Below, piece after piece: positions 41,935 through 58,140 of a DNA stretch of 64,000 nt. The position numbers were made by a program, and so were the translations under genes. Each line of letters opens with the position of its first letter. Positions within the stretch are counted from its first letter, which is position 1. Under the pieces are notes generated by a model. It searched no databases and was not told the origin of the DNA. It saw only the letters and a list, made by a program, of their open reading frames with translations. Origin of the DNA: Candidatus Latescibacterota bacterium (GTDB lineage Bacteria; Latescibacterota; UBA2968; GCA-2709665); assembly GCA_965205485.1 (NCBI GenBank), contig OZ242180.1, positions 2,688,001 to 2,752,000 on the forward strand, written 5' to 3'.

Positions 41935-42027
41935 TCGCGGACGGGAAAGTACACGTTCGGGCGATTCGGATCCCGCGTGCAGTAGGGGCGACCGGCCGGT
42001 CGCCCGTATTTGAAAGGATGGTTTCAA

Positions 42028-43647: not shown

Positions 43648-43913
43648 CCGGCGCCGCCGATGAGGAAGCCGGTGTGAGGGTGGGGCGGACATTCCTGTCT
43701 GCCCACGTATGCCAGGCCGAAACATCGGGGTCCTGTGTCCGGACATACGCCGGGTCCTGTGGAAACCGCGCAATTGATCGGACTGGCGCCTCAGGCCTGC
43801 TGGGGCGACCCTCCGGTCGCCCTTGAATTGTCATCGCTTCTTGCATCGGTTACGGAAATCCGCTATGATTTAATGAATTCATCGTTGAAACCTATTCACC
43901 TCGAGAACGGCCA

Positions 43914-44276: not shown

Positions 44277-44423
44277 TGCAGTGTCTCCATGCGCTGCAAC
44301 ATGGCTGATGAATGGTAGTCGACGCAAAGTGGGCAACCACAAGGGTTGCCCCTACCAAATCATCCCGATGCGCAGTTTCCGAAGGGGCGACCAGCCGGTC
44401 GCCCCTTCGACTTTATTCTACGC

Positions 44424-44457
44424 TGTCGCAATACCTGCGACAATCCCTTCTTACGTT
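44424..44457 (+). promoter_or_regulatory. Palindromic operator + TAnnnT upstream of the WYL gene
   Basis: TGTCGCA-N5-TGCGACA-9 nt-TACGTT. Confidence 0.65.
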
Positions 44458-44474
44458 TATGTGGAGGGTTTCAG

Positions 44475-45446
44475 ATGGAACGCACAATGACCCGCGCCGA
44501 ACGTCTAAAGGCGATCGAGACTTATCTCTATCAATCGGCGGGCGGCAAGAAGGCCACGGACATCGCCTCGCGGTTCGCCGTACACCGAAGTACGGTGTAC
44601 CGGGACATTCAGTCGCTGGGCGAATCCGGGTCGCCGATATGGGAGGACAACGGGCAGTTCGGCGTGTTGAAGGAACGATATCTGACCACCGTCCGTGTCA
44701 ATCTGCACGAGGCCCTGGCGCTCTACCTGGCCGCTCGCCTGCTCTCTGCGCACAGCGACGAACACAATCCGCACGTCGTCTCTGCGCTCGAAAAGCTCGC
44801 AAGCGCAATGCCGGAGTCCATCGGCGAACACATCAACCGAACGGCCGCGGTTGCCGACAGGCGCAGGCCCGATCGCGATCACATCCGCATTCTGGAAACG
44901 CTCACGCGCGCCTGGTCCGAACGCAGGCAGGCGCGTATCGTCTACCACAACCCACAGACCGGCGAAACCACCGATCGTACCGTAGATCCCTACTTCATCG
45001 AGCCTTCGCCCGTGGGATACGCCTGCTACGTCATCGGTTACGACCATTTGCGGCAGGACATCCGAGAGTTCAAAGTGGAGCGAATTGAACGGGCGACGCT
45101 GCTGGAGACAAGATTCAAGACGCGGGTTGGCTTCGATCCGTACGAATTCCTCGAGCACTCGTGGGGCATCATGGGCGGTAACGAGGTCGTGGACGTCGTA
45201 CTCCGGTTTTCGGAGAAGGTCGCGTACCGCGTTCGGGAATCGGACTGGCCGGGGGTGGTGGACGTGACGGACGAGCCCGACGGCGGCTGCCGGCTGCGGC
45301 TCAGGGTGAAGCACACGCTCGAGATGAAGCCGTGGATCCGAGGCTGGGGGCCGGAGTGCGAGGTGCTGGCGCCGGAGGAGCTGAGAAACGAGATCGCCGA
45401 GGATATGATCAAGGCGGGGAGTGTGTATGAATCAGGATCCGTCTGA
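44475..45446 (+). CDS. WYL-domain transcriptional regulator (HTH-WYL-WCX)
   Basis: HTH (VHRSTVYRDI); VDPYFI..CYVIG..REFKVERI; WIRGWG.ECEVLAPEELR. Confidence 0.95.
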   Translation: MERTMTRAERLKAIETYLYQSAGGKKATDIASRFAVHRSTVYRDIQSLGESGSPIWEDNGQFGVLKERYLTTVRVNLHEALALYLAARLLSAHSDEHNPHVVSALEKLASAMPESIGEHINRTAAVADRRRPDRDHIRILETLTRAWSERRQARIVYHNPQTGETTDRTVDPYFIEPSPVGYACYVIGYDHLRQDIREFKVERIERATLLETRFKTRVGFDPYEFLEHSWGIMGGNEVVDVVLRFSEKVAYRVRESDWPGVVDVTDEPDGGCRLRLRVKHTLEMKPWIRGWGPECEVLAPEELRNEIAEDMIKAGSVYESGSV

Positions 45447-45747
45447 GATCAGAGACAGTAGGGGCGACCGGCCGGTCGCCCGCACAAAAACAACGCCAGC
45501 GCGAGGTTTCGGTTGTGGGCGGCCCTCCTATCTCTTCCGTCTTCGCCTCTTGCTGGCGGCCGGGGATTTGTTGGGTGCTACGATCCGTACTTCCCCATGC
45601 GCCGCCGGTTGACTTCCCTCTGATTGTCTGACCCGCATTTCGATAAACGGCTGTGAATTCCAACTTCTGTTGCACAGCCGCAACCTCTGTGACGCAAAAT
45701 GCGACATTTTTCACCATAAAATCAACAAATAGGACGAAGAATTCATC

Positions 45748-46443
45748 ATGAGTTCAACAATATATCCGTATATTGTACTCTCACGAACAACGGCACTGAA
45801 TGGCAGAACACCAAACTGGTTTGGGAACAATCAAGTTAAGGATGCCCGCATTGGCGACATCAATAGTGTGGGAATGGAGGACAGTTTGACGAGAGCCGAA
45901 ATCATCGCGCGTCGCCGCGAGTTCGAGATCCCAGGATACAAACACAAGTACAAGACGCTTGCAGACGTCGGGTTTGACGGCGAGTGGGTTACGCCATACC
46001 AGATCGTGTCGAGTTCCGAGACGGGTCCGGTACTGGTCGCACACTACTGGCTGGATGCCCCACAAGTCAATAGACATCGCCAGGTGCTGAAGGAGCACGG
46101 CTGGCTGCCGGGTATTCCCTTCAACAAAGTACTGACGCTGGCCCTTGAGCGGGCGAACCTGACCCGCGAGGACATCTATGTCACGCAAGCGTTTCATCTG
46201 TTGCCGTACAAGCAGTGGCCGCCGTTCCGTATACGACACATCGATGAATCGTTTGACAGAATCACACGGCACGAGTGCGCGGGTCGGACGGTCATCGCAC
46301 TCGGTACGGTCGCGCAACGCGCCTGTCGCCGCGCCGGCGTCGAGGCCATCGAATGTATCAGCCCAAGCGCTCGCCTGAGTTGGGAGTACAAGGTGGAAGA
46401 ACTCGCTAAGGCGCTGAAGACCGCGTTGGTGCGGATCGGATGA
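45748..46443 (+). CDS. Uracil-DNA glycosylase-superfamily protein
   Basis: LTREDIYVTQAF, VIALGTVA and SPSAR resemble UDG motifs; real start may be 45874. Confidence 0.55.
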   Translation: MSSTIYPYIVLSRTTALNGRTPNWFGNNQVKDARIGDINSVGMEDSLTRAEIIARRREFEIPGYKHKYKTLADVGFDGEWVTPYQIVSSSETGPVLVAHYWLDAPQVNRHRQVLKEHGWLPGIPFNKVLTLALERANLTREDIYVTQAFHLLPYKQWPPFRIRHIDESFDRITRHECAGRTVIALGTVAQRACRRAGVEAIECISPSARLSWEYKVEELAKALKTALVRIG

Positions 46444-46691
46444 GACGCCGGATGACACAGACAATCGTGACGACAGTTACGAACCGGTCGAGCAGCCTAA
46501 GGGTTGTGATGGCGCCGGCGACTGTTCTGATGCCCTGACGAGATCCTTGTAGATGGCCGAGAAGTTGCACATCGGACGGCATTCAAAAGCTCAAGCCGTA
46601 AACCGATGCCTGTCACATCTCCTGCTTTTCTGTTTTTCGGACGTCTTCGATGCCTGTCAACATCGTTTTTGCTTTTGGCTGTTCGCGGATC

Positions 46692-46802
46692 GCTTCCGTT
46701 CACTTCGGTGGGGGAGCGGATTGAAACGTAGGATCGGTCGGCTCGAAGGTCGTCACCGGCCCCAAAATCTCCCCGCACTTCGGTGGGGGGCGTGGATTGA
46801 AC
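46692..46802 (+). CRISPR. Orphan mini-array: two 36-nt type I-C-like repeats, one 39-nt spacer
   Basis: Both repeats end CACTTCGGTGGGGG(A/C)G(C/T)GGATTGAAAC (25/27 identical); spacer 46728-46766. Confidence 0.75.
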
Positions 46803-46914
46803 TTCGCGGCGGGACCCAGGTAGTACTGCGCGCCAATTCAACCTATACATTCGGGTCCAGCCTGTGATGTTCGGACCGGGTATTGATCCAATTTCATGAT
46901 GAAATGAGGCGACT

Positions 46915-47541
46915 ATGGATATGACCGAAATCTCCAGTCTGCTGGCACTGACGCTCGGGGTCGGCTGGGCTAGCGGGATCAATCTGTATGCAACCGTGTT
47001 TACTTTGGGGCTCGCCGGTTTAACAGGATACGTGGAATTACCTGATCAGCTCGATGCGATCCAGAATCCCTGGGTACTTGTCGCCGCAGGTTTGATGTAC
47101 CTTGTGGAGTTCGTCGCCGACAAGATCCCTGGATTCGACACGGTTTGGGATGTCATCCACACCTTCATTCGCGTTCCGGCGGGTGCTCTGATGGCTTTGG
47201 GGGCAACGGGTGATCACGGCTTGGCCCTGGATATGACTGGTGGACTGGCCGGCGGTATCATGGCCCTGAATAGCCACGCGACCAAGATGGGTTCGCGCGC
47301 GGCCATCAATACGAGCCCTGAGCCGTTTTCCAACTGGGCTGCATCAATCACAGAGGACATATCCGTCGTGGGCGGCTTGTGGCTGGCACTGAACCACCCC
47401 TGGACGTTTCTCGGTTTGCTGGTGTTGTTCGTCGTGCTCTCCGTTTTTTTGTTGCGGATAATCTGGTCAACTCTTAAAGCGGCGATTCGGAAAGTACGAT
47501 CCCGATGGCGTTCCGATCTCGCCCATAGTAGGGGAGAATGA
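46915..47541 (+). CDS. DUF4126-family membrane protein
   Basis: GWASGINLYA, EFVADKIPG.D..WD, SPEPFSN..S..ED. Confidence 0.9.
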   Translation: MDMTEISSLLALTLGVGWASGINLYATVFTLGLAGLTGYVELPDQLDAIQNPWVLVAAGLMYLVEFVADKIPGFDTVWDVIHTFIRVPAGALMALGATGDHGLALDMTGGLAGGIMALNSHATKMGSRAAINTSPEPFSNWAASITEDISVVGGLWLALNHPWTFLGLLVLFVVLSVFLLRIIWSTLKAAIRKVRSRWRSDLAHSRGE

Positions 47542-47635: not shown

Positions 47636-47672
47636 CTTACTGGGAATCTTCCATCAGAACAAGGATTGAGAC
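47636..47672 (+). CRISPR. Type III-like CRISPR repeat R1, leader of small ORF A
   Basis: CTTACTGGGAATCTTCCATCAGAACAAGGATTGAGAC (37 nt). Confidence 0.75.
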
Positions 47673-47676
47673 GATT

Positions 47677-47853
47677 ATGCGAAATAGACAAGACACCGCT
47701 GGTATGCTGGTCTGGCATCCCGACGGCAAGCCCTACTCGCCGGCCGACTACGAAAAGGCGGGCATGCCGGTGCCCACGCCCGAGCAGCTCGCCCACTGGG
47801 CCGAGACCGACCGGTGGATCGCCGAACTCAAAGCCAAGTACGACACCGATTAG
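47677..47853 (+). CDS. Small ORF A, 58 aa, unknown function (absent from ORF track)
   Basis: MRNRQDTAGMLVWHPDGKPYSPADYEKAGMPVPTPEQLAHWAETDRWIAELKAKYDTD; 39/58 identical to ORF B. Confidence 0.8.
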   Translation: MRNRQDTAGMLVWHPDGKPYSPADYEKAGMPVPTPEQLAHWAETDRWIAELKAKYDTD

Positions 47854-47893: not shown

Positions 47894-47986
47894 CTCGCTC
47901 AGAATCTTCCATCAGAAAAGGGATAGAAATGCATGCCGGCAATGGCCGGTGCCTCGTGAGAGTCTTCCACCAGAACAAGTGGAGAC
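47894..47986 (+). CRISPR. Degenerate mini-array R2-21 nt-R3
   Basis: R2 CTCGCTCAGAATCTTCCATCAGAAAAGGGATAGAAAT; R3 CCTCGTGAGAGTCTTCCACCAGAACAAGTGGAGAC. Confidence 0.7.
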
Positions 47987-48101
47987 GTTGTTACACCGGC
48001 GGCAATAATTACCGACATGCGTGTCGGGGGACCTGGTCTATGAGGATCCCAACGACAGTCCATTCTATTGCAGTGAGCCTCGATCGAAGTGAAGGAATTG
48101 A

Positions 48102-49433
48102 ATGACCGCAGCCGGCAGGGAGAACGACCTAGCGCCCGTTGAGCGATGTCTTTCCATCGGCACCTGGAACATGGATCACTGGAAACGGACCACGCAGCAG
48201 CGCCGGGACGCATGGGATTACCTCAAAACAAACCGCAATGCTGACGTGATGCTGCTTCAGGAAAGCGTCGCGCCGGCTGGTATCCCCCGTACCAGTTTCG
48301 TGCACCGAGAGATCGCTGGCCGGCGGCCATGGGGATCATCGGTTGTGGCGTTCGCGGATGACGTGGAAATCGAGGAGGTCGATGCCGTACGCACCCGCTA
48401 CGGCGCCACGAGATACAGCTTGCTGGGAAGCCTTCCGGGTTCCTTAATCGTCGCTCGAATCCACGTGCCTGAAATCGGCCCTATTACGTGTGTGAGCGTC
48501 TATGGTACGATAGATGGCGTCTATGCGCAGACAACGATGTTTCGTGTTATTGCCGACCTGGTTCCGCTGTTTGACTCGGGCGACGGCAGGCGGGTCATTC
48601 TGGGCGGCGACTTCAATATTACAACAGCGGCGTCTCCCGAAACGCCCGAACGGCCTCGATACCGCGCCATCTTGTCTGGCATCGAATCACTCGGACTCGT
48701 CAATCTCGCCGAGACGGCAAAGTGTCGCCCGGACTCCATGCCTGGTTGTCCGTGCAGTGCCGATGATTGCCGCCACATCCGAACGTTCGGCGACAATCCT
48801 GGCACGCAGCTCGATTGGCTGTACGCCACGGAGGAACTCGCACGCAGGTGCACACGCCTGTCCGTCGATCACACCGTTATGGGTACAATGAGCGACCACG
48901 CGCCGCTCGTTGCCGAGTTTCGAGTCCCCCCGCTCGAGGGCAGCGGGGTTGTCGATCCGGATTCATTCGTCCGGGAACTTGCGGTCCGCACTGGTTCCGA
49001 GTGTGCTCGAATCGCGGAAGAACTGATCGCGTGGGCGCACTGGAAGCACGCGGAGCTGGATCGATGGGACCGGAAGGCCGTGTCCTTTGACCGATTGCCG
49101 ACGCGTGATAGCGATCCGCCGGAAATCTGGTTCCAGCTCGATAAAGGACGTCCGGGTCGAGAGAGGAATCTGTTGCAATGGACCTTCAGCATCAAGGCAC
49201 ACGGGCGCGTCGTCGTGCAATTTCGATGGTTGACCGGCCCGTTCAAACAGATGAGTGCGCGGGAAGAACTCTGGTCAGATTTGTGCCGGATTGAAGGCGT
49301 GTCTCTGGACAAGAATCTGAATAGCAAACCGAGCTTTTCCTTAAAGGCCCTGGCGCAGCCTGATCGCCTCGAGCAGTTTCAGCAGGTGTTTTCCAATATG
49401 ATTGACAAAACGCTGCAGGGAAACGCGGATTGA
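48102..49433 (+). CDS. Endonuclease/exonuclease/phosphatase (EEP) protein with extra C-terminal domain
   Basis: TWN, LLQE, GGDFN, QLDW, SDHAP; about 170-aa C-terminal extension. Confidence 0.85.
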   Translation: MTAAGRENDLAPVERCLSIGTWNMDHWKRTTQQRRDAWDYLKTNRNADVMLLQESVAPAGIPRTSFVHREIAGRRPWGSSVVAFADDVEIEEVDAVRTRYGATRYSLLGSLPGSLIVARIHVPEIGPITCVSVYGTIDGVYAQTTMFRVIADLVPLFDSGDGRRVILGGDFNITTAASPETPERPRYRAILSGIESLGLVNLAETAKCRPDSMPGCPCSADDCRHIRTFGDNPGTQLDWLYATEELARRCTRLSVDHTVMGTMSDHAPLVAEFRVPPLEGSGVVDPDSFVRELAVRTGSECARIAEELIAWAHWKHAELDRWDRKAVSFDRLPTRDSDPPEIWFQLDKGRPGRERNLLQWTFSIKAHGRVVVQFRWLTGPFKQMSAREELWSDLCRIEGVSLDKNLNSKPSFSLKALAQPDRLEQFQQVFSNMIDKTLQGNAD

Positions 49434-49502: not shown

Positions 49503-50093
49503 GTGGACACGAGTGGTTTATCCGAATTCAGCCGTGATCTGGAGTCCTTGATCGGCAAGCCGACCGATCTGCGCCCGTTCGTTTGTGAAGGTTCTCCACT
49601 TGAATGCGAAGTGTTCCTCGTAGGTTTCAATCCTGCGAGCCCCATGTCCGTAGACTTTTGGGATTTCTGGAAGGACAGCTATGGATTCAACAAATGCGCC
49701 TGGTTCGAGAAGTACAAGTACGAGCGACGGAACCGCCCGCTGAAGCGTGGAAGGACGAGAAGGAATGAAGTAAGCAACACGCGTAGAACCATAGATGTCG
49801 TCGTCGAAAGTGCCAGACCCGTCAAATGCCTCGAAACGAACATCTACGCGAATGCGACTGAGCAGAAATCGGACCTGAAAGCAAAAGACAGAGTCACGGC
49901 GCCCTTCGACTATCTCCTGCACGAGGTCGCACCTAAGCTGGTGATTGCCCACGGCAGGGATGCCGCGAGTTACTTGCAAGGGCAGGACCTACCGTGCGAG
50001 CTTAAGTGTGTTCCACATTTCGCACTCGGTTGGTACGAGCAAAGCGCGCGAGATCTGGGTGTGTGTATTCGCAGGTATTGCGAAGGAAAGTAA
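49503..50093 (+). CDS. UDG-superfamily protein
   Basis: VFLVGFNP, ETNIY, PKLVIAHG, PHF motifs. Confidence 0.6.
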   Translation: MDTSGLSEFSRDLESLIGKPTDLRPFVCEGSPLECEVFLVGFNPASPMSVDFWDFWKDSYGFNKCAWFEKYKYERRNRPLKRGRTRRNEVSNTRRTIDVVVESARPVKCLETNIYANATEQKSDLKAKDRVTAPFDYLLHEVAPKLVIAHGRDAASYLQGQDLPCELKCVPHFALGWYEQSARDLGVCIRRYCEGK

Positions 50094-50357: not shown

Positions 50358-50906
50358 ATGCCAAATGGAGGATCCGACTGTTGCGGGACCTGCTGGTTCA
50401 ATCGAAGGAATCAGGGCGAGCGCGACTGGTTGGCGCACGCAGACGAGAGTATACCGCCCTTTTGCGAGATCAGGGACATCGAGGTGGAGGATCCGTTCTA
50501 CACCTATTGCGCGAACCATCCTCATCGCCGGCCCGATCGCGACACCATTCCCATCGGGCCGGTGATGCGCCACGGCGGATGGAAAGAGGAACGGCGCGTC
50601 GAGGACGGTCAAACCATTTTATCCAGTTGCGAGAATCCTCGTTACGTCTGGAAACCCTCGCCGGATTCGGAAGAGATTCGCCAACACCTGCTGAATCTGC
50701 TGAATAGCATTTTCGAGCACATGTCAAGGGACCGGTATCCGATAGGCGCCGGTCTGGGAGAGACGATTATCCGGCAACTTGGCGAGTTTCGGGAGGAACG
50801 GTCGGTGAAGTATCTCGAATGGATACGCGAGAATCTCGAAGATTCGCTGGATTTCATGGCAGTCGCTGCCAACGAGGCGCTGGGCAAGATCCAGGAAAAT
50901 GAATAA
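50358..50906 (+). CDS. Cys-rich hypothetical protein with HEAT-like C-terminus
   Basis: CCGTCWFN...C...CANH; LGEFRE...AANEALGKI; GGAGG RBS. Confidence 0.75.
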   Translation: MPNGGSDCCGTCWFNRRNQGERDWLAHADESIPPFCEIRDIEVEDPFYTYCANHPHRRPDRDTIPIGPVMRHGGWKEERRVEDGQTILSSCENPRYVWKPSPDSEEIRQHLLNLLNSIFEHMSRDRYPIGAGLGETIIRQLGEFREERSVKYLEWIRENLEDSLDFMAVAANEALGKIQENE

Positions 50907-50961: not shown

Positions 50962-50998
50962 TCCGCTGAGAATCTTCCTTCAGAACAAGGATCGAAAC
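50962..50998 (+). CRISPR. Type III-like CRISPR repeat R4, leader of small ORF B
   Basis: TCCGCTGAGAATCTTCCTTCAGAACAAGGATCGAAAC; 29/37 identical to R1. Confidence 0.75.
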
Positions 50999-51002
50999 AG
51001 CT

Positions 51003-51179
51003 ATGCGAAACAGACAAGATAGCGCAGGCATGCAGTGCTGGCACCCTGACGGCACGCCCTTCTCTGACGCCGACTACCGCCGGGCAAACCTCCCTGTGCC
51101 CACACCTGCGCAGTTGGCACACTGGGCCGAAATGAAACGGCTCATCGATGAGATGAAAGCACGCCACGACACCGAGTAA
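51003..51179 (+). CDS. Small ORF B, 58 aa, paralog of ORF A (absent from ORF track)
   Basis: MRNRQDSAGMQCWHPDGTPFSDADYRRANLPVPTPAQLAHWAEMKRLIDEMKARHDTE. Confidence 0.8.
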   Translation: MRNRQDSAGMQCWHPDGTPFSDADYRRANLPVPTPAQLAHWAEMKRLIDEMKARHDTE

Positions 51180-51180
51180 G

Positions 51181-51217
51181 CCCGGCGAGAATCTTCCGTT
51201 AGAACAAGAGAGGACAC
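51181..51217 (+). CRISPR. Degenerate repeat R5, leader of the DUF6361 gene
   Basis: CCCGGCGAGAATCTTCCGTTAGAACAAGAGAGGACAC; fills nearly the whole intergenic gap. Confidence 0.7.
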
Positions 51218-51218
51218 A

Positions 51219-52430
51219 ATGCAGGCGACGTTGACCTGGCTCGATCTGACGGCAAGCGACCGGGACAAGATGCGGCGGGTGCTGGACCTGTTCAATGAGC
51301 AGGGCACCCTCGATGAGATGGGACTCGGAAACCTTCGAGACGCGATTTCTGACGCGCTGTTTCCCGGGACCTCTTATATCCAGACGCGGCTGCGCTATGT
51401 ACTCTTCATTCCCTGGATCTACCAGAGGCTGGAGGCGCGGCGCGTCAGGAGCGTGGATGTAGCACAGGCCGCGCGCAAGGCGGAAGTCGATCTAATCGGG
51501 CGGCTTGAGCAGGGCCAAGACAAGAAAGGCATCATCGGCGTACTCGCTGGCCATTCGCTAGTACGGTTGCCGAGTTCCATATACTGGAGTGCACTCACTC
51601 GATGGGACGTCTTCAGGCCTCAACAGAGCCAGAGTTGGTATCACACGAACTTCGATACCCTGTTGGAAGGTCGCAGCGACGTGGGGCGGGCAGACGATCC
51701 GGGCGTGATCTGGAGCCGAGATGCACACTGGAATCCGCGTATGCCAGAGCCACCGGACGGCTTTCCTGAGGGAGCATCCTTTGCGTTGACCCGCGACGAG
51801 GCGGACTTTCTTTGTAGCCGCCTGGAGGAAACGTGTGCCGGCACGCTTCTGGCGTGGCTGGCCCGCACTGGAACCGATTCGCCCGCGAAAGATTCCTGGA
51901 AGGATCCGGACGCTCTCCGTGCACCTCAGGATATCCTTGATACCGTCGAACTGGCACGGCGTTTTTCACTACATGTCGAGGGCATGCCGCTGCTCTACAA
52001 TCTGGTTGTGGCGGAACACCGCCGCGAGATGCTTGACTCTGACGATGAGGGCGAATTGATCAGCTCGTACCGTACAGAGCTCACTGAGTGGGCGGACTCT
52101 GAGGCGGAAGAAGCTCAACCATTCGATCCGGATCCGCTGTGGGAATTGGTAGCCCGACGCGGTGGGCGCACTCCACATCATCAACGACTCTTCATTCAAG
52201 ATTGGTCTCGACAGATTGCCAAGTTGGATGCCGACATGATCGCCGACGACCCACGGCTGCGGGCGATGGTAACCGAACGCGAGTTAAACCTGAAGGGAGC
52301 GCGCGCACGACTTGGAAACCGTAGTCGCCTGATGGAATGGACGCCAGGGGTAGGTGTTGGTCGGATGGACTTTCGCTGGGTTCGCGTCCGGCAGTTTCTT
52401 ACGGACCTTCACAGGGGGTTGGCCGCCTGA
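51219..52430 (+). CDS. DUF6361-family protein (defence triad, gene 1)
   Basis: WLD...GTLDEMGLG..RDA.SD.LFPGTS.IQTRLRY.LFIP; C-terminal MDFRW. Confidence 0.8.
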   Translation: MQATLTWLDLTASDRDKMRRVLDLFNEQGTLDEMGLGNLRDAISDALFPGTSYIQTRLRYVLFIPWIYQRLEARRVRSVDVAQAARKAEVDLIGRLEQGQDKKGIIGVLAGHSLVRLPSSIYWSALTRWDVFRPQQSQSWYHTNFDTLLEGRSDVGRADDPGVIWSRDAHWNPRMPEPPDGFPEGASFALTRDEADFLCSRLEETCAGTLLAWLARTGTDSPAKDSWKDPDALRAPQDILDTVELARRFSLHVEGMPLLYNLVVAEHRREMLDSDDEGELISSYRTELTEWADSEAEEAQPFDPDPLWELVARRGGRTPHHQRLFIQDWSRQIAKLDADMIADDPRLRAMVTERELNLKGARARLGNRSRLMEWTPGVGVGRMDFRWVRVRQFLTDLHRGLAA

Positions 52431-54265
52431 TGTTATCGCCCGATACGCGATCCACCGCCTTCGAATTGCTACGCCCGCCCTGCGGGTACCAACTCGACCT
52501 CGCGGTGCTTTCCACTTACACGCTCGATCTTGAAACACTGCTCGTACTCCCCTTGTCGGTACTTGCACATTCCGATGGTGGACTGGATGAGTTATTGGCC
52601 GATCCGCTCTGTCTGCAACAGGCAATCCGGGATGCGGGTGACCGCATTCATGCTTTCGTGGACGAATCCGGAATCGCGATTCCACGCAACGCGCGATCGC
52701 TGTACTCGATGCTTGAGTCGAGCGTCCACGCCGTACGTGCCCCGAATGGCGGCGCATTCCACCCAAAGGTGTGGGTGGCTCGATTCGTTGCCTCTGATGA
52801 GGATGCTGAAGACCTATTGCGCGTTGCGATCCTGTCGCGAAACCTGACCTTTGACCGTTCCTGGGACATCGCACTGACGAGCGAGGCGTCCATCCGGGGC
52901 CGTCGACGTGTCGCCGTGAGCAGGCCGCTACGCGACTTTCTGCTGACATTGCCGCAACTCTCAACCAGCCCCGTACACGAGAACGTCGTAGCACGTCTCA
53001 AGGCATTAGCCGAACAGGTTTCGCGAACCGCTTTCCCTGCCCCTGACGGCTTCGCCGATCCGGTCGCGTTCCATTTACTCGGATTGCAGAAACGCCGCCG
53101 TCTGTGGCGCCCGCCGTCTACCGGGTATCGAACACTCGCAGTATCGCCGTTCATCAGCCGGACCGGACTGGAGGTGGTCGGGGAGTTGAGCGGTAACGAC
53201 CGGATGCTGGTGAGCCGACAGGAGGAACTCGACAGACTCGGTCAGGATGCGCTGGCTGAATGGAACGATGTATTCGTCCTTTCAGATGCCGCGCATGGGG
53301 AATCCGACGAAAGTCTGGCTGATGAAAACCAACCCGCAGCTGGTGGAATTGATCGCCCGTCGGGGTTGCATGCCAAGATGATCGCCGTGGAGCATGGTTG
53401 GGACGTTACCTGGTACGTGGGTTCCGCGAACCTGACCTCGTCTGCATTAAGCGGCAGCAACGTCGAAATGGTGGCGTCCGTCACCGGCAGGAAGGGACGC
53501 AAGGGGGGCCACAGCGGTCATGGTATCGATCGGTTCCTTGACGCCGGATTTCGGAAGCTGTGTGTGAAGTATGAGAGAGTCGAACCGGAGAAAGAAGACC
53601 CAGCCATCACCGATTCGCGAAATCGTCTTGAGGCGGCACGGGACGCCCTGTTGAGGACTGACCTGTGCGTGAATTGCGTTTCCGCAGGTGACGCCTGGAC
53701 CTTGACGATTGACGGAGACGGTATTCCGTGCGCCGACGATGTCGAGGTCGTAACTTGGCCCGTCTCCGTCGCCGAAGATCAAGCCTTGCTGCTGGAGAAG
53801 GCGGTCAGTTGGAGGTTGCCCGTTGCGCGTCTTACGGCATTCATCGCCTTTCGGCTGAGCGTCGACGTCGGTGGCGTGGACGACGTCAGAATGACCCTTA
53901 GTCTACCCGCTCAAGGAATCCCGGAGGATCGCATGCATCACGTGCTCCGGGGCCTGTTGGACAGTCCGGAGAAGTTCCTTCGATTCCTTCGGGCATTGCT
54001 CGGCGGGCTCGATTCCGTTTTTGGCTGGGCGCAGGAACCCAGGCAGGGAGACGCGGCCTTCGCCTGGGGAATCGGGGAGGGTGGCGAGACATTGCTCGAC
54101 GACCTTGTCCGCACTGCCTCAAGAGACCCCGATCGCCTGAAGCCGGTACGTCGCCTGATCGACGACCTTCGGAAGACGGAAGAAGGGCGCCGTATCGTAC
54201 CTGACGAACTATTCGGTATCTGGACGGCAGTCGAGGAGGCACTCGCACCGGAGCCACGACTATGA
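52430..54265 (+). CDS. Phospholipase D-superfamily nuclease (triad, gene 2)
   Basis: FHPK...SRNLT and LHAK...GSANLT; TGATG coupling to the upstream gene. Confidence 0.85.
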   Translation: MLSPDTRSTAFELLRPPCGYQLDLAVLSTYTLDLETLLVLPLSVLAHSDGGLDELLADPLCLQQAIRDAGDRIHAFVDESGIAIPRNARSLYSMLESSVHAVRAPNGGAFHPKVWVARFVASDEDAEDLLRVAILSRNLTFDRSWDIALTSEASIRGRRRVAVSRPLRDFLLTLPQLSTSPVHENVVARLKALAEQVSRTAFPAPDGFADPVAFHLLGLQKRRRLWRPPSTGYRTLAVSPFISRTGLEVVGELSGNDRMLVSRQEELDRLGQDALAEWNDVFVLSDAAHGESDESLADENQPAAGGIDRPSGLHAKMIAVEHGWDVTWYVGSANLTSSALSGSNVEMVASVTGRKGRKGGHSGHGIDRFLDAGFRKLCVKYERVEPEKEDPAITDSRNRLEAARDALLRTDLCVNCVSAGDAWTLTIDGDGIPCADDVEVVTWPVSVAEDQALLLEKAVSWRLPVARLTAFIAFRLSVDVGGVDDVRMTLSLPAQGIPEDRMHHVLRGLLDSPEKFLRFLRALLGGLDSVFGWAQEPRQGDAAFAWGIGEGGETLLDDLVRTASRDPDRLKPVRRLIDDLRKTEEGRRIVPDELFGIWTAVEEALAPEPRL

Positions 54266-57200
54266 AGCGTCCTTGCGTCAGCGCGAGTCTGAAACCGCTA
54301 AAGTCCTTTCAGCGTCGTACCGTGGAGCACGCCTTCCACCGCCTGTTCACTGCGGAAGACGGAACCGGGCGTTTTCTGGTGGCTGACGAGGTAGGCCTCG
54401 GGAAGACGCTGGTCGCCCGGGGTATCATTGCCCGTACCATCGATCACCTCTGGACCGACGTCGAACGGATCGACATTGTCTACATTTGCAGTAACGCCAG
54501 CATCGCGCGTGCCAATCTGCCAAAGCTCAGGATCGGAGGCGCCGAAGAACGGTCGTTCGCATTAGCGACCCGTCTCACGATGTTGGCCACGCAACTGGCG
54601 CGTAAGGAAGGTGAACCTGGTCTGATCGACAGCAAGCTGAACTTCGTCAGCTTCACGCCGGGCACGTCCTTTAACATGGGGCAATCCGCAGGGCAGCGCC
54701 AGGAGCGGGAGGTGCTGTTTCAACTGCTCGATCCGCTGACAGAGCGGCGCACGGCGCTTATGAACTTCCTGCAGGGATGGATTACGGACAGAGATGACTG
54801 GCGCTGGTACCTTAAGAACCGCCCCCGCCCTATCGAAGACATGATACGTCGAAGGTTTGAGAATGCATTTTGCAAGCGCCACGGTCTGGAGGACAGATTT
54901 CAAGGCATCCTTGGTGCGTTCCGCCGCTACCGGGTAAATTGGCCTGACGATGTGCGGTACCAGCGGGACCGGCTCATATCCGAGTTGCGCCGCCTGCTGG
55001 CCGGAGTGTGTGTCCGCGCCCTCGAGCCGGATCTCGTGATCATGGACGAGTTCCAGCGCTTCAAGTCACTGCTCGACACAAGTGGCGTAGAGCGAGACCC
55101 TGCAGCGCACCTGGCTCACGAGTTGTTCCAGGCCAAGGCGCATGACGGTAAGCGCGTGCGGACGCTCTTGCTCTCCGCGACTCCGTACAAGCTCTACACC
55201 GCAGATGCGGAGATTGAGCAGGAAGACCATTACGAAGACTTTCTGGCAACTACCGAATTCCTCCTCGGCGATGAAGACGGTCGCGTTGAAGAGCTTAAAC
55301 GCCAATTGTCGCGTTTCGGGTCCGCGTTGAAGGGCACGGCGGCCGGAGAACCGGATAAGGCCAAGAGAATCGAACGCGCGAAGCACGAGGTCGAGGTATC
55401 ACTTAAGAACGTGATGGCACGAACCGAGCGTGTCGCAGCCAGTGAAGAGCACGACGCGATGGTGGCGGAGGTGCCGAGCAACGTGACCGTGACCTCAACC
55501 GATGTGCGCCAGTACCTGGCCGCAGATGCCCTGTTTAGGGCTATCGGTGACCGCGATCCGATGCCGTTCTGGAAGTCGGCGCCGTACCTTGCTCATTTCA
55601 TGCACGGTTACAGGTTCAACGAACTACTCGCAGAGGCGATTAAGTCACCGAGAAAGATCGTCGAGGTCTTCCAGCAGCACGAGTCTGCGTTCTTGAAGGC
55701 TGCGACGATTCGCTCCTGGGAGAGCATTGACCCCGGAAACGCGAAGCTGCGTGAGATGGTTGGGGAACTGATCGACGAGGGAATGTGGCGACTTCTCTGG
55801 ATGCCGCCGACGCTTCCGTACTGGCCGCTTGAAGGACCGTTCAAGGGAACGGCACAGGCAACGAAACGCCTGTTGTTCTCTGCATGGAACGTCGTGCCCG
55901 ACGTTGTCAGCGCCGTTCTGAGCTACGAAGCGGAACGTCTGATGACACGTAGTCCACGCGGCCGGATTGAATCCTACGAAAGACTCGTCGAGCAGCAGAG
56001 GCCGCTCTTGAGACTTACGCAGTCGGTAGTCGGTCGACGGTCACGACATCGTCTACTGCTTTTGCTCTTGCCCTGCCTTCCGCTGGCAGATGGGGCCCAT
56101 CCTCTTGATGCGCCGCCCGGCCAGGATCGCCGGGCGTGGGTCCGGTCGCGAGTCGACGAAATTCTTTCTGACACAGAGCTTCCGAACCCAAAGCAAGGTA
56201 ATATCGACGACAGGTGGGAATGGATCGCGCCGCTCCTGATAGATCCTGAACTGCGCGGTTTCCTTCGGGCTTGGGTGAACGGCGGGCTTCCCGGGTTGTC
56301 AGCAAATGAGCGACTACCGCAGCCAAACCCGGAAGTCTTTGGCGCTTACGTAGATGATTTGCTTGACGTCGAATTGCGTACCCTAGGCCGGCGACCACCG
56401 CATCTTGCAGAATTGCTCACCGACGTCGCACTTGGCTCGCCCGCAATACTCGCAGCACGCAGTCTAAGAAATAGGACGAATATCGGCGACGGTACGCGAC
56501 GTCGGCTCGCCGTGATGATTTCACTTGCGTTCTGGAGCCTCTTCAATCAGCCGGCTGTAATCACACTGATGCGTCAACTGGCTTCAGATTCGGCCGAAGC
56601 CAGGAATGAATCAGCCTACTGGCGTCTTGTGCTCGGCTATTGCCGGCAAGGCAACCTGCAAGCAGTACTGGACGAACAATGGCACCTGCTTTGGGACCAG
56701 GAGTCGTGGTCCGGCGACGCCAGCGGCGACGAAACCGCCGAAGGGTGCGCCCGCAAACTCATCCAGGTTGTGCGTCCAATGCGTGCTCGTGTCCATGCAA
56801 GGTTTTTCGAGATTAAGGGTGCAGGAGGAAATGGATCGACGCTTGCAAGTGATGAAGTCCGCCTTCGTACGGCTTTCGCGCTGCGCTTCGGCCACATCAG
56901 CACGGATGAAGGCGTTCACATCAGCCAGGACGCCGTTAGAGACGCCTTCAATAGTCCGTTTCGTCCCTTTGTACTTACCAGTACATCGATTGGGCAGGAA
57001 GGGCTCGATTTTCATCCTTGGTGCCACCGCTTGGTCCACTGGAACCTGCCCGGCAATCCGGTCGATCTCGAACAACGCGAAGGCCGCATCCATCGATACA
57101 AGGGACACGCGATCCGTCGAAATGTCGCTGCCCGCCATGCGCATGACGCGCTGACGTCATGGAGGGCCGGAGACGACATTTGGATACGGATGTTCGAGTT

Positions 57201-57471
57201 AGCCGACCAGGCGGCGCGAGCTTCCGGGGAAAGTGATCTGGTACCTCACTGGATCGCCCCCGGAGATTGCTTGGTACAGCGCCATGTGCCACTCCTGCCA
57301 TACACGACGGAGATCGAGGCGTTCAAACGCCTCAAACGTCAACTCGCGGCCTACCGGGTTGTCTTTGGGCAACCCCGCCAGGAGGAACTCGTTGCGCTGC
57401 TCGACCGATCTGACGTCGACGTCACGAAATTCAAAGAATGGGCGATCGATCTCTCGCCACCAGAGATCTGA
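54262..57471 (+). CDS. SF2 (SNF2-like) helicase (triad, gene 3)
   Basis: ADEVGLGKT, DEFQ, SAT, GQEGLDF, QREGRIHR; ATGA overlap. Confidence 0.9.
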   Translation: MKRPCVSASLKPLKSFQRRTVEHAFHRLFTAEDGTGRFLVADEVGLGKTLVARGIIARTIDHLWTDVERIDIVYICSNASIARANLPKLRIGGAEERSFALATRLTMLATQLARKEGEPGLIDSKLNFVSFTPGTSFNMGQSAGQRQEREVLFQLLDPLTERRTALMNFLQGWITDRDDWRWYLKNRPRPIEDMIRRRFENAFCKRHGLEDRFQGILGAFRRYRVNWPDDVRYQRDRLISELRRLLAGVCVRALEPDLVIMDEFQRFKSLLDTSGVERDPAAHLAHELFQAKAHDGKRVRTLLLSATPYKLYTADAEIEQEDHYEDFLATTEFLLGDEDGRVEELKRQLSRFGSALKGTAAGEPDKAKRIERAKHEVEVSLKNVMARTERVAASEEHDAMVAEVPSNVTVTSTDVRQYLAADALFRAIGDRDPMPFWKSAPYLAHFMHGYRFNELLAEAIKSPRKIVEVFQQHESAFLKAATIRSWESIDPGNAKLREMVGELIDEGMWRLLWMPPTLPYWPLEGPFKGTAQATKRLLFSAWNVVPDVVSAVLSYEAERLMTRSPRGRIESYERLVEQQRPLLRLTQSVVGRRSRHRLLLLLLPCLPLADGAHPLDAPPGQDRRAWVRSRVDEILSDTELPNPKQGNIDDRWEWIAPLLIDPELRGFLRAWVNGGLPGLSANERLPQPNPEVFGAYVDDLLDVELRTLGRRPPHLAELLTDVALGSPAILAARSLRNRTNIGDGTRRRLAVMISLAFWSLFNQPAVITLMRQLASDSAEARNESAYWRLVLGYCRQGNLQAVLDEQWHLLWDQESWSGDASGDETAEGCARKLIQVVRPMRARVHARFFEIKGAGGNGSTLASDEVRLRTAFALRFGHISTDEGVHISQDAVRDAFNSPFRPFVLTSTSIGQEGLDFHPWCHRLVHWNLPGNPVDLEQREGRIHRYKGHAIRRNVAARHAHDALTSWRAGDDIWIRMFELADQAARASGESDLVPHWIAPGDCLVQRHVPLLPYTTEIEAFKRLKRQLAAYRVVFGQPRQEELVALLDRSDVDVTKFKEWAIDLSPPEI

Positions 57472-57578: not shown

Positions 57579-57615
57579 ATTTCTCCTCACTTCGGAGAGA
57601 GGAGCGAATTGAAAC
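57579..57615 (+). CRISPR. Solitary type I-C-like repeat abutting a GTG start
   Basis: ATTTCTCCTCACTTCGGAGAGAGGAGCGAATTGAAAC; shares CACTTCGG, ATTGAAAC and upstream GCTGTTCG with the 46.7-kb mini-array. Confidence 0.65.
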
Positions 57616-58140
57616 GTGAAGCGCACACGGACACGTGCGATCGTGGGGTCATTCGTCTTCTTCTGGGTCGCGCCGGCTGTCGTTGCCGGCGTCATCCCGT
57701 TCGCGCTGGTCGGCTGGACGATGCAGCCGCCGCTGCTCGGGCTGCCCGGCGAGCGGGTATTGGGAGCCGCGGCCGTCGCGGCGGGTCTGGCCTGCCTGCT
57801 GGACTGCTTCGCCCGTTTCGCCCTCGAGGGTCGTGGCACACCGGCGCCGGTGGCGCAGACCGAAATACTGGTCGCTTCCGGCCTCTATCGGTTCGTGCGA
57901 AACCCGATGTATATCTCCATGTTGATCATCATTTCAGGGCAGACGCTGCTCTTTGGCCAGGCACGGCTGTTGGTTTACGCCGGGGTGGTGTTTGCCGCGT
58001 TCCACCTGAACGTGCTGCTCTATGAGGAGCCGCAACTCCGTCGAAGATTCGGAGGGTCGTACGAGACCTACCGCCTGCACGTGGGTCGCTGGTGGCCACG
58101 CCTGACGCCGTGGCGCGGGTCAGGTACGCCAGGCTGCTGA
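57616..58140 (+). CDS. Isoprenylcysteine carboxylmethyltransferase/PEMT-family membrane protein
   Basis: GRGTPAP, GLYRFVRNPMY, EEP.L..FG..Y..Y. Confidence 0.9.
   Translation: MKRTRTRAIVGSFVFFWVAPAVVAGVIPFALVGWTMQPPLLGLPGERVLGAAAVAAGLACLLDCFARFALEGRGTPAPVAQTEILVASGLYRFVRNPMYISMLIIISGQTLLFGQARLLVYAGVVFAAFHLNVLLYEEPQLRRRFGGSYETYRLHVGRWWPRLTPWRGSGTPGC

Follow-up and report, generated by a model that had tools for sequence, protein, structure and literature searches.

A decayed type I-B CRISPR repeat as candidate ribosome-binding site of an Azaca defence operon in a Latescibacterota genome

The locus and its repeats

Within the window, the whole stretch of 64,000 nucleotides analysed here, a decayed CRISPR repeat (R5) lies between a short open reading frame (ORF B) and a three-gene defence operon of a Candidatus Latescibacterota bacterium. 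Its genome, a single contig and 97% complete, is referred to as G000, and other G numbers denote the genomes compared with it. The island around R5 carries the following features:

44346..45446, + strand: HTH-WYL-WCX regulator gene, followed in relatives by the cas operon of this site, which is gone in G000
46469..46803, + strand: leader-like region with two repeats of a second family (I-C-like, hairpin) at 46691-46727 and 46767-46803, around one spacer
46915..47541, + strand: DUF4126 gene, co-oriented island cargo with its own leader
47636..47672, + strand: R1, near-intact repeat leading ORF A
47677..47853, + strand: ORF A, 58 aa, paralogue of ORF B (67% identical)
47894..47930, + strand: R2, decayed repeat
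47952..47988, + strand: R3, strongly decayed repeat; G29 lost, 2 of 8 handle nucleotides kept
48102..49433, + strand: EEP nuclease gene, co-oriented island cargo with its own leader
49503..50093, + strand: unnamed island gene, co-oriented cargo with its own leader
50358..50906, + strand: unnamed island gene, co-oriented cargo with its own leader
50962..50998, + strand: R4, near-intact repeat; G28-G29 and 7 of 8 handle nucleotides kept; its AAGGA, the likely Shine-Dalgarno sequence (SD) of ORF B, spans the predicted cut
51003..51179, + strand: ORF B, 58 aa, of a repeat-led small-protein family with a WHPDGTP motif; its stop codon ends 1 nt before R5
51181..51217, + strand: R5, decayed 37-nt type I-B (Cas6b) CRISPR repeat and likely ribosome-binding site of zacA; GAGGA at 51210-51214
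51219..52430, + strand: zacA (DUF6361), 403 aa; Pfam PF19888, PADLOC ZacA E 1.6e-122
52430..54265, + strand: zacB, PLD-like nuclease; PADLOC ZacB E 2.7e-159, matching from residue 32 of a longer ORF; start overlaps the zacA stop (TGATG)
54262..57471, + strand: zacC, SF2 helicase; PADLOC ZacC E 0; start overlaps the zacB stop (ATGA)
57579..57615, + strand: second-family repeat closing the Azaca slot, its end 0 nt from the GTG that opens a PEMT-family gene (57616-58140)

The triad after R5, which a sequence-only reading had already called a defence operon, is identified by PADLOC and Pfam as Azaca (zacABC), with all three proteins encoded in one operon. ZacB carries the PLD motifs HxK(x4)R and HxK(x4)E, compared with the canonical HxK(x4)D, and Walker A and B are both present in ZacC. 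According to the accessible text of its description, Azaca needs all three proteins for T4 DNA degradation (10.1101/2025.07.10.664194), and the overlapping stop and start codons would pass translation from zacA on to zacB and zacC.

The core of R5 was found as that reading had given it, GAGAATCTTCC.T.AGAACAAG, at 51187-51208 of the window sequence without a mismatch, and its last eight nucleotides are indeed GAGGACAC (51210-51217), followed by a single A at 51218 and the DUF6361 ATG at 51219-51221. At up to three mismatches the window contains five copies of the repeat, compared with none in 100 shuffles, the whole 5.13-Mb genome contains the same five and no others, and these are also the five best-scoring matches in a profile scan of the genome. 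The attribution of R5 to a Cas6-processed CRISPR family is borne out by relatives, in which the 37-nt type I-B repeat, ending ATTGAAAC, lies beside cas6b. The repeat core is present in 12 of the 61 genomes searched, all inside the family, and arrays with a period of 72-77 nt adjoin cas6b-cas8-cas7-cas5-cas3-cas1-cas4 in G003, G006 and G009. Regular arrays beside cas genes occur in these three genomes and in G015 but not in G000, where a k-mer test found no intact array. R5 as a transcription-factor box, an early idea, was dropped after arrays of the same repeat had turned up in relatives. An Rfam scan of the window gave no match, and a promoter and terminator scan stayed at chance level with no promoter standing out.

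Among 12 array repeats beside cas6b, positions 15-18, 21 and 23-37 are invariant, and G29 is kept in all 12 of them, in 288 of 291 array-type copies and in 87 of 100 solitary copies; it is missing from R5 of G000, G006 and G005. Compared with the array repeat of relatives, R5 is identical at 25 of its first 28 nucleotides, and identity falls steeply past position 28, to 4 of the last 9 nucleotides and 4 of the 8 in the handle. Position 18 has changed from A to G, and position 29 (51209), the base 5' of the predicted cut, is A instead of G, a point absent from the earlier account. The intact handle and conserved cut-flanking bases of type I-B Cas6b repeats are thus missing from R5, while R1 and R4 largely possess them. 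Joints between R1 and R5 and between R1 and R2 in contigs of four sequencing runs from one study had a short side of 26-30 letters at 90% likeness and were not used as evidence. At window position 48004, 3' of R3, four of four sequencing runs have one base fewer, possibly an assembly error or a strain variant. The window also contains four copies of a 27-nt palindromic, REP-like intergenic repeat (41980-42006, 43797-43823, 44379-44405 and 45456-45482).

Azaca orthologues and the exchange of cas genes

Six of the 22 family genomes searched carry zacA, and in all five close copies (74-100% identity) a repeat ends 1 nt before the ATG; the sixth, in G001 (34% identical), has no repeat before its start. 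Two collection scans yielded 51 zacA loci, of which four belong to genus relatives. None of the 47 from other taxa, among which are a few duplicates and a few uncertain starts, has a repeat, with 6-15 of 37 nucleotides matching in register. The upstream repeat that the sequence-only reading would have triad orthologues share is therefore present, within the genus only. In a zacA tree of 28 rows (the five genus copies and 23 of the 47 outside loci) the five R5-bearing genes form one clade with support 100/98, in which G005 is deepest.

The tails of these R5 copies differ, being AGAGGAC.. in G000 and G006, AGATGAC.. in G005 and GACTCAC.. in G010 and G014, the last two with an additional 3-nt deletion upstream, so that GAGGA occurs in only two of the five orthologues. 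The sequence upstream of R5 differs as well (ORF B in G000 and G006, another paralogue in G010 and G014, a 38-nt spacer in G005), and G010 and G014 share a near-identical zacA leader despite a zacA identity of just 82%. G005 has, in this order, a leader, a second-family repeat, a 38-nt spacer, R5 and zacA, and therefore Azaca occupies an array slot, which a further repeat closes 3' of zacC. The stretch 46469..46803 of the window is 86% identical to the sequence preceding this G005 unit. zacABC appears to have inserted a single time, at one of the repeat slots in the CRISPR locus of the genus, and this locus appears to have become an island whose co-oriented genes are punctuated by repeats.

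The chromosomal position of the locus is fixed, with the same flanks in relatives (S41 peptidase, FtsX, ABC, metallo-beta-lactamase fold, YbjQ and WYL genes), where the flanking genes are followed by the cas operon, the arrays and then a variable island. The kind of cas operon differs among relatives, being I-B with Cas6b, I-C, or a type with another Cas6, while at the same site G000 retains the WYL gene and the leader-like stretch and no cas gene was found there. Profile searches of G000 gave no match to Cas1, Cas6, Cas5 or RAMP proteins, the Cas6 search comprising five models with working controls and a sixth whose control gave no signal, and tblastn of 16 Cas proteins from relatives returned one weak match only (E 9e-4). 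R5 thus lacks a cognate Cas6b in its own genome, and among the five genomes with an R5-led Azaca operon Cas6b is detectable only in G006. Cas modules are swapped at this one site, leaving old arrays orphaned. In the window, 44346-46803 holds the WYL regulator, a UDG-family gene, the leader-like stretch and the two-repeat remnant where relatives carry at least three kinds of cas operon. A long first-family array lies beside I-C-like genes in G011, in which no Cas6b was found.

Predicted Cas6b cleavage and Shine-Dalgarno sequences

In the accessible text of Richter 2012 (PMC3479195), Cas6b cuts 37-nt repeats after nucleotide 29 and a single repeat suffices as substrate, and a review, likewise seen in part, has the enzyme impose an otherwise unfavoured stem-loop on the repeat (PMC6546412). 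Of the 12 invariant positions up to 29, R5 retains 10 in G000 (A18 and G29 lost), 9 in G006, 10 in G005, 12 in G010 and 11 in G014; TCC and ACAAG are retained in all five orthologues. From their conservation, we take C16-G29 and C17-G28 to be probable pairs of the imposed stem-loop. Since both G29 and A18 are invariant in 12 of 12 array repeats, cleavage of R5, and with it a 5' end at 51210, is doubtful; the retention of TCC, ACAAG and 10 of 12 invariant positions could nevertheless reflect continued recognition.

In the intact repeat, AAGGA would serve as an SD lying across the Cas6b cut (between GG and A), and Cas6b would therefore silence a gene using it. Pairing with the genome's own 16S tail, computed before and after a hypothetical cut at 29/30, changes for ORF B at R4 from -5.0 to -0.3 kcal/mol, and for zacA from -6.9 to -5.6 kcal/mol in G000 and G006, from -4.7 to -0.5 in G005, where no SD is left, and from -4.9 to 0 in G010 and G014, where the zacA SD is removed too. 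The allele of G000 and G006 lacks G29 and has GAGGA 3' of the cut position, and therefore its predicted zacA SD is kept cut or uncut, which is the robust part of the earlier idea. For the uncut RNA, modelling predicts weak pairing of GAGGA with TCTTCC of the same repeat, the unpaired probability of GAGGA being 0.37 intact versus 0.73 cut, and this modelled gain in accessibility suits a cut-activated site. The sequence-only reading had proposed that one cut gives opposite outcomes from one transcript. The arithmetic agrees with it, an SD being kept on zacA and stripped from ORF B, but no Cas6 was found in G000, and since no cas gene was found the proposed outcome cannot occur there now. Extended to the orthologues, this switch fits G000 and G006 and fails elsewhere, as GAGGA is confined to these two, the zacA SD is lost in G010 and G014 and none is left in G005.

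G006, the only genome with both an R5-led Azaca operon and Cas6b, carries the G29A/GAGGA allele, and G010 and G014 combine an intact AAGGA site with no detectable Cas6b. A block of Cas6b by G29A is suggested by conservation and by the presumed stem-loop, in a comparison that includes one Cas6b-positive Azaca genome (n=1). In G005, the deepest copy, which combines A29 with a weak SD and has no detectable Cas6b in 320 contigs, A29 may be an ancestral state that has nothing to do with escape.

Repeat cores also lie over other start codons. The motif TCC-N10-GG ending 3-11 nt before the start is found at 9 of 20 cas6b genes of the phylum, compared with 69 of 3723 long-ORF starts in G000 (1.9%), a crude control from this genome alone, and the nine motif-led genes fall in three Cas6b groups with a mutual identity of only 33-54%. 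Of 11 cas6b leaders chosen by eye from the 20 (L166-L185), 10 keep GG (28-29), the handle agrees at 3-6 of 8 nucleotides, and six have their start at +1, as R5 does in G010. An SD across the predicted cut over the cas6b start suggests, from its sequence, Cas6b self-repression. In several of these leaders another repeat lies some 80 nt further upstream, and the one over cas6b often looks like the distal repeat of a mini-array; the repeat core over cas6b may instead be kept for crlRNA processing, the loss of the SD being a by-product. The motif is absent from G006's own cas6b leader and from all 12 Spirochaetota cas6b loci whose start could be called (14 examined), which were scored without their own repeats, and no Cas6b was found among 401 genomes around G168. 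Among cas1 leaders in Cas6b loci, 1 of 12 is strictly repeat-like (G026, L192) and one partially (G024, L188), while three cas8 leaders match only 7-9 of 15 positions of the short motif. The cas5 start of G013 likewise lies at a repeat-like end.

Members of the ORF A/B family were found in 14 of the 168 genomes of the phylum, with 1-6 matches each; 13 of these 14 belong to the genus, which is represented by 15 genomes. The family's starts lie mostly 2-5 nt past a repeat of either family. Its pN/pS of about 0.35, from the 24 of 231 pairs passing the divergence filter, indicates purifying selection, with several copies frameshifted. The 75 profile matches include distant members, many of the 75 being unrelated repeat proteins. 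ORF B had no Pfam, PADLOC, Atlas or meaningful PHROG match, its structural model (pLDDT 81.6) no fold match in PDB or BFVD, and the only viral hit was one weak locus match (E 4e-4). Members fill repeat slots, with up to about 5 copies per island (L031, L037, L040, L110 and others).

In the islands of 15 genomes, a start codon that opens at least 50 codons lies within 6 nt of 37 of 129 non-array repeats (those with no spacer-length unit following) versus 20 of 427 array-type repeats, rows that are not independent and come mostly from the ORF A/B family. The PEMT gene starts 0 nt after a repeat in six of six genomes. In G013 (L050) and G016 (L159) the start of an Nmad3 gene lies 4 nt past a repeat core and GAGGAC junction, a second R5-type tail; most other island genes have ordinary leaders of their own. 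In G006 (L036) a repeat is joined inside the homologue of 49503-50093 at a 7-nt shared word (window 49831-49837), truncating the gene. The repeat before the PEMT gene changes family between genomes, being second-family here and first-family in G014 and G002.

Competing readings and known systems

On balance we consider it somewhat probable that R5 is a repeat-derived ribosome-binding site of the Azaca operon, predicted to be insensitive to Cas6b and standing uncut in G000. It is unlikely that the tail is instead the incoming operon's own leader, joined neutrally at a short shared word (CAAG/AGGA), with selection only for a usable SD and Cas6 irrelevant; the window finding would then be a modest annotation. 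The break in identity past position 28 (25/28 versus 4/9), its recurrence as core and then GAGGAC before the unrelated Nmad3 gene in G013 and G016, the joint at a 7-nt shared word in G006, the own leaders of most island genes and the 92 of 129 non-array repeats without a long ORF start within 6 nt all agree with such a junction. However, the R5 tail has no counterpart in register among the 47 outside zacA leaders, the +1 register recurs in 6 of 11 cas6b leaders, and repeat cores stand before cas6b far above background, which suggests that repeat-embedded ribosome-binding sites are not only accidents in this phylum. That R5 owes its retention chiefly to DNA recombination, as a site for cassette shuffling, its position over the ribosome-binding site being incidental, we regard as very improbable. 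It would account for the exchange upstream of R5 (ORF B, the other paralogue or the 38-nt spacer), for leaders near-identical between G010 and G014 at a zacA identity of 82% and for the family switch before PEMT, but it leaves the fixed start-codon distance of 0-5 nt and the cas6b leaders unexplained, and it is compatible with the ribosome-binding site we favour rather than exclusive of it.

A differential cut, in which Cas6b-positive kin such as G006 cut both R4 and R5, stripping the SD of ORF B and leaving or unmasking GAGGA on zacABC, G000 being a relic after cas loss, appears decidedly unlikely. Its arithmetic fits G000 and G006, the predicted accessibility of the SD rises from 0.37 to 0.73, Cas6b is present in G006, and the degenerate handle is in itself no argument against cutting, as the core persists in cas6b leaders that have 3-6 of 8 handle nucleotides. 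Against it stand the loss of G29, with just 9 of 12 invariant positions held by R5 of G006, whereas GG at 28-29 is kept in 10 of 11 hand-picked cas6b leaders; moreover GAGGA occurs in two of five orthologues, the opposite is predicted for G010 and G014, and no Cas6 was found in G000. Beyond the insensitive R5 that we prefer for G000, a wider reading is conceivable, and we put it forward tentatively, as something that may well not hold. Repeat cores over start codons would let Cas6b shut off its own synthesis and that of genes parked at the locus, to be released as a backup layer upon titration or loss of Cas6b; the R5 allele of G000 would have left this control, and the locus would be a repeat-led cassette island with a post-transcriptional switch. 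The genes concerned are cas6b in three clades, a cas1, the ORF A/B family, PEMT, and Azaca in G010 and G014.

Neither Azaca nor Cas6b repeats nor stand-alone repeats with a regulatory role are new. The relatives' repeats agree with the 37-nt Cas6b repeats of M. maripaludis and C. thermocellum in length and in the 8-nt ATTGAAAC tag, as far as the accessible text of Richter 2012 (PMC3479195) describes these, and their neighbours are alike too (cas6b-cas8b-7-5-3-1-4). R5 departs from those repeats in standing alone, in keeping 4 of 8 tag nucleotides and lacking G29, in having a 6.3-kb operon where a spacer would follow, and in belonging to a genome with no detectable Cas6b. The protein order DUF6361, PLD and SF2 helicase is that of Azaca in the available part of its description (10.1101/2025.07.10.664194), and only this genus has the repeat-derived leader. 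In the sections accessible of two preprints, stand-alone repeats near I-B loci are enriched upstream of cas6, have a degraded distal repeat and are viewed as regulatory exaptations (10.1101/2023.03.03.530964; 10.1101/2024.10.29.618823), and the pairs of repeats about 80 nt apart before cas6b in this phylum resemble the mini-arrays upstream of I-B cas6 described there (Shmakov 2023, 10.1101/2023.03.03.530964), in whose main text the words 'start codon', 'mRNA' and 'ribosome' are absent. The crlRNA mini-array, defined by two repeats around a spacer of 20-60 bp, is matched in form by the G005 unit with its 38-nt spacer but not by R4-R5, which are separated by 182 nt holding a gene under purifying selection. 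Looking up exact seeds of 10-12 nt in G000, for the hypothesis of a guide, gave no local target, and there is no Cascade in G000. The array of G023 (L198/L199) mixes many short units (47-67 nt) with normal ones.

CreR, CreTA and crlRNAs are known cases in which CRISPR controls other genes, at the level of DNA. For the crlRNAs (CreR, CreA), as partly accessible accounts describe them, the target is DNA, reached through Cascade with a short spacer directed at a promoter, while here the repeat overlaps the ribosome-binding site, a gene takes the place of the spacer and the mRNA would be cut. With CreTA, an RNA toxin that the same kind of partial source reports as repressed by Cascade, the predicted logic for ORF A/B would be shared, a gene being held down by the CRISPR machinery and freed on its failure; unlike CreTA, ORF A/B is protein-coding, and its control would be post-transcriptional and exerted by Cas6 alone. 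A lethal addiction toxin is unlikely, because the ORFs are intact in G000, where no cas gene was found. R5 also differs from the solitary repeat units of viruses (Racr) in lying at a fixed chromosomal site with the same flanking genes in relatives, and viral contigs contained no exact match of the 25-nt repeat pattern. A literature search, with subscription journals and supplements largely outside it, returned no description of a repeat cut site overlapping the SD of a natural gene, nor of genes in repeat slots.

If true, the coincidence of cut site and SD would let Cas6 alone switch translation off directly, would place crRNA processing under feedback and would provide a simple means of sensing RNA anti-CRISPRs that titrate Cas6, and natural allele pairs such as the G010 and G000 leaders make such gating by Cas6b testable. 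It would also offer a route from a CRISPR array to a defence island, the repeat supplying both junction and ribosome-binding site. Integron cassette arrays consist of co-oriented short cassettes split by repeats, are reshuffled between strains and are rich in defence genes; by this description the island may be regarded as analogous, its separators being CRISPR repeats.
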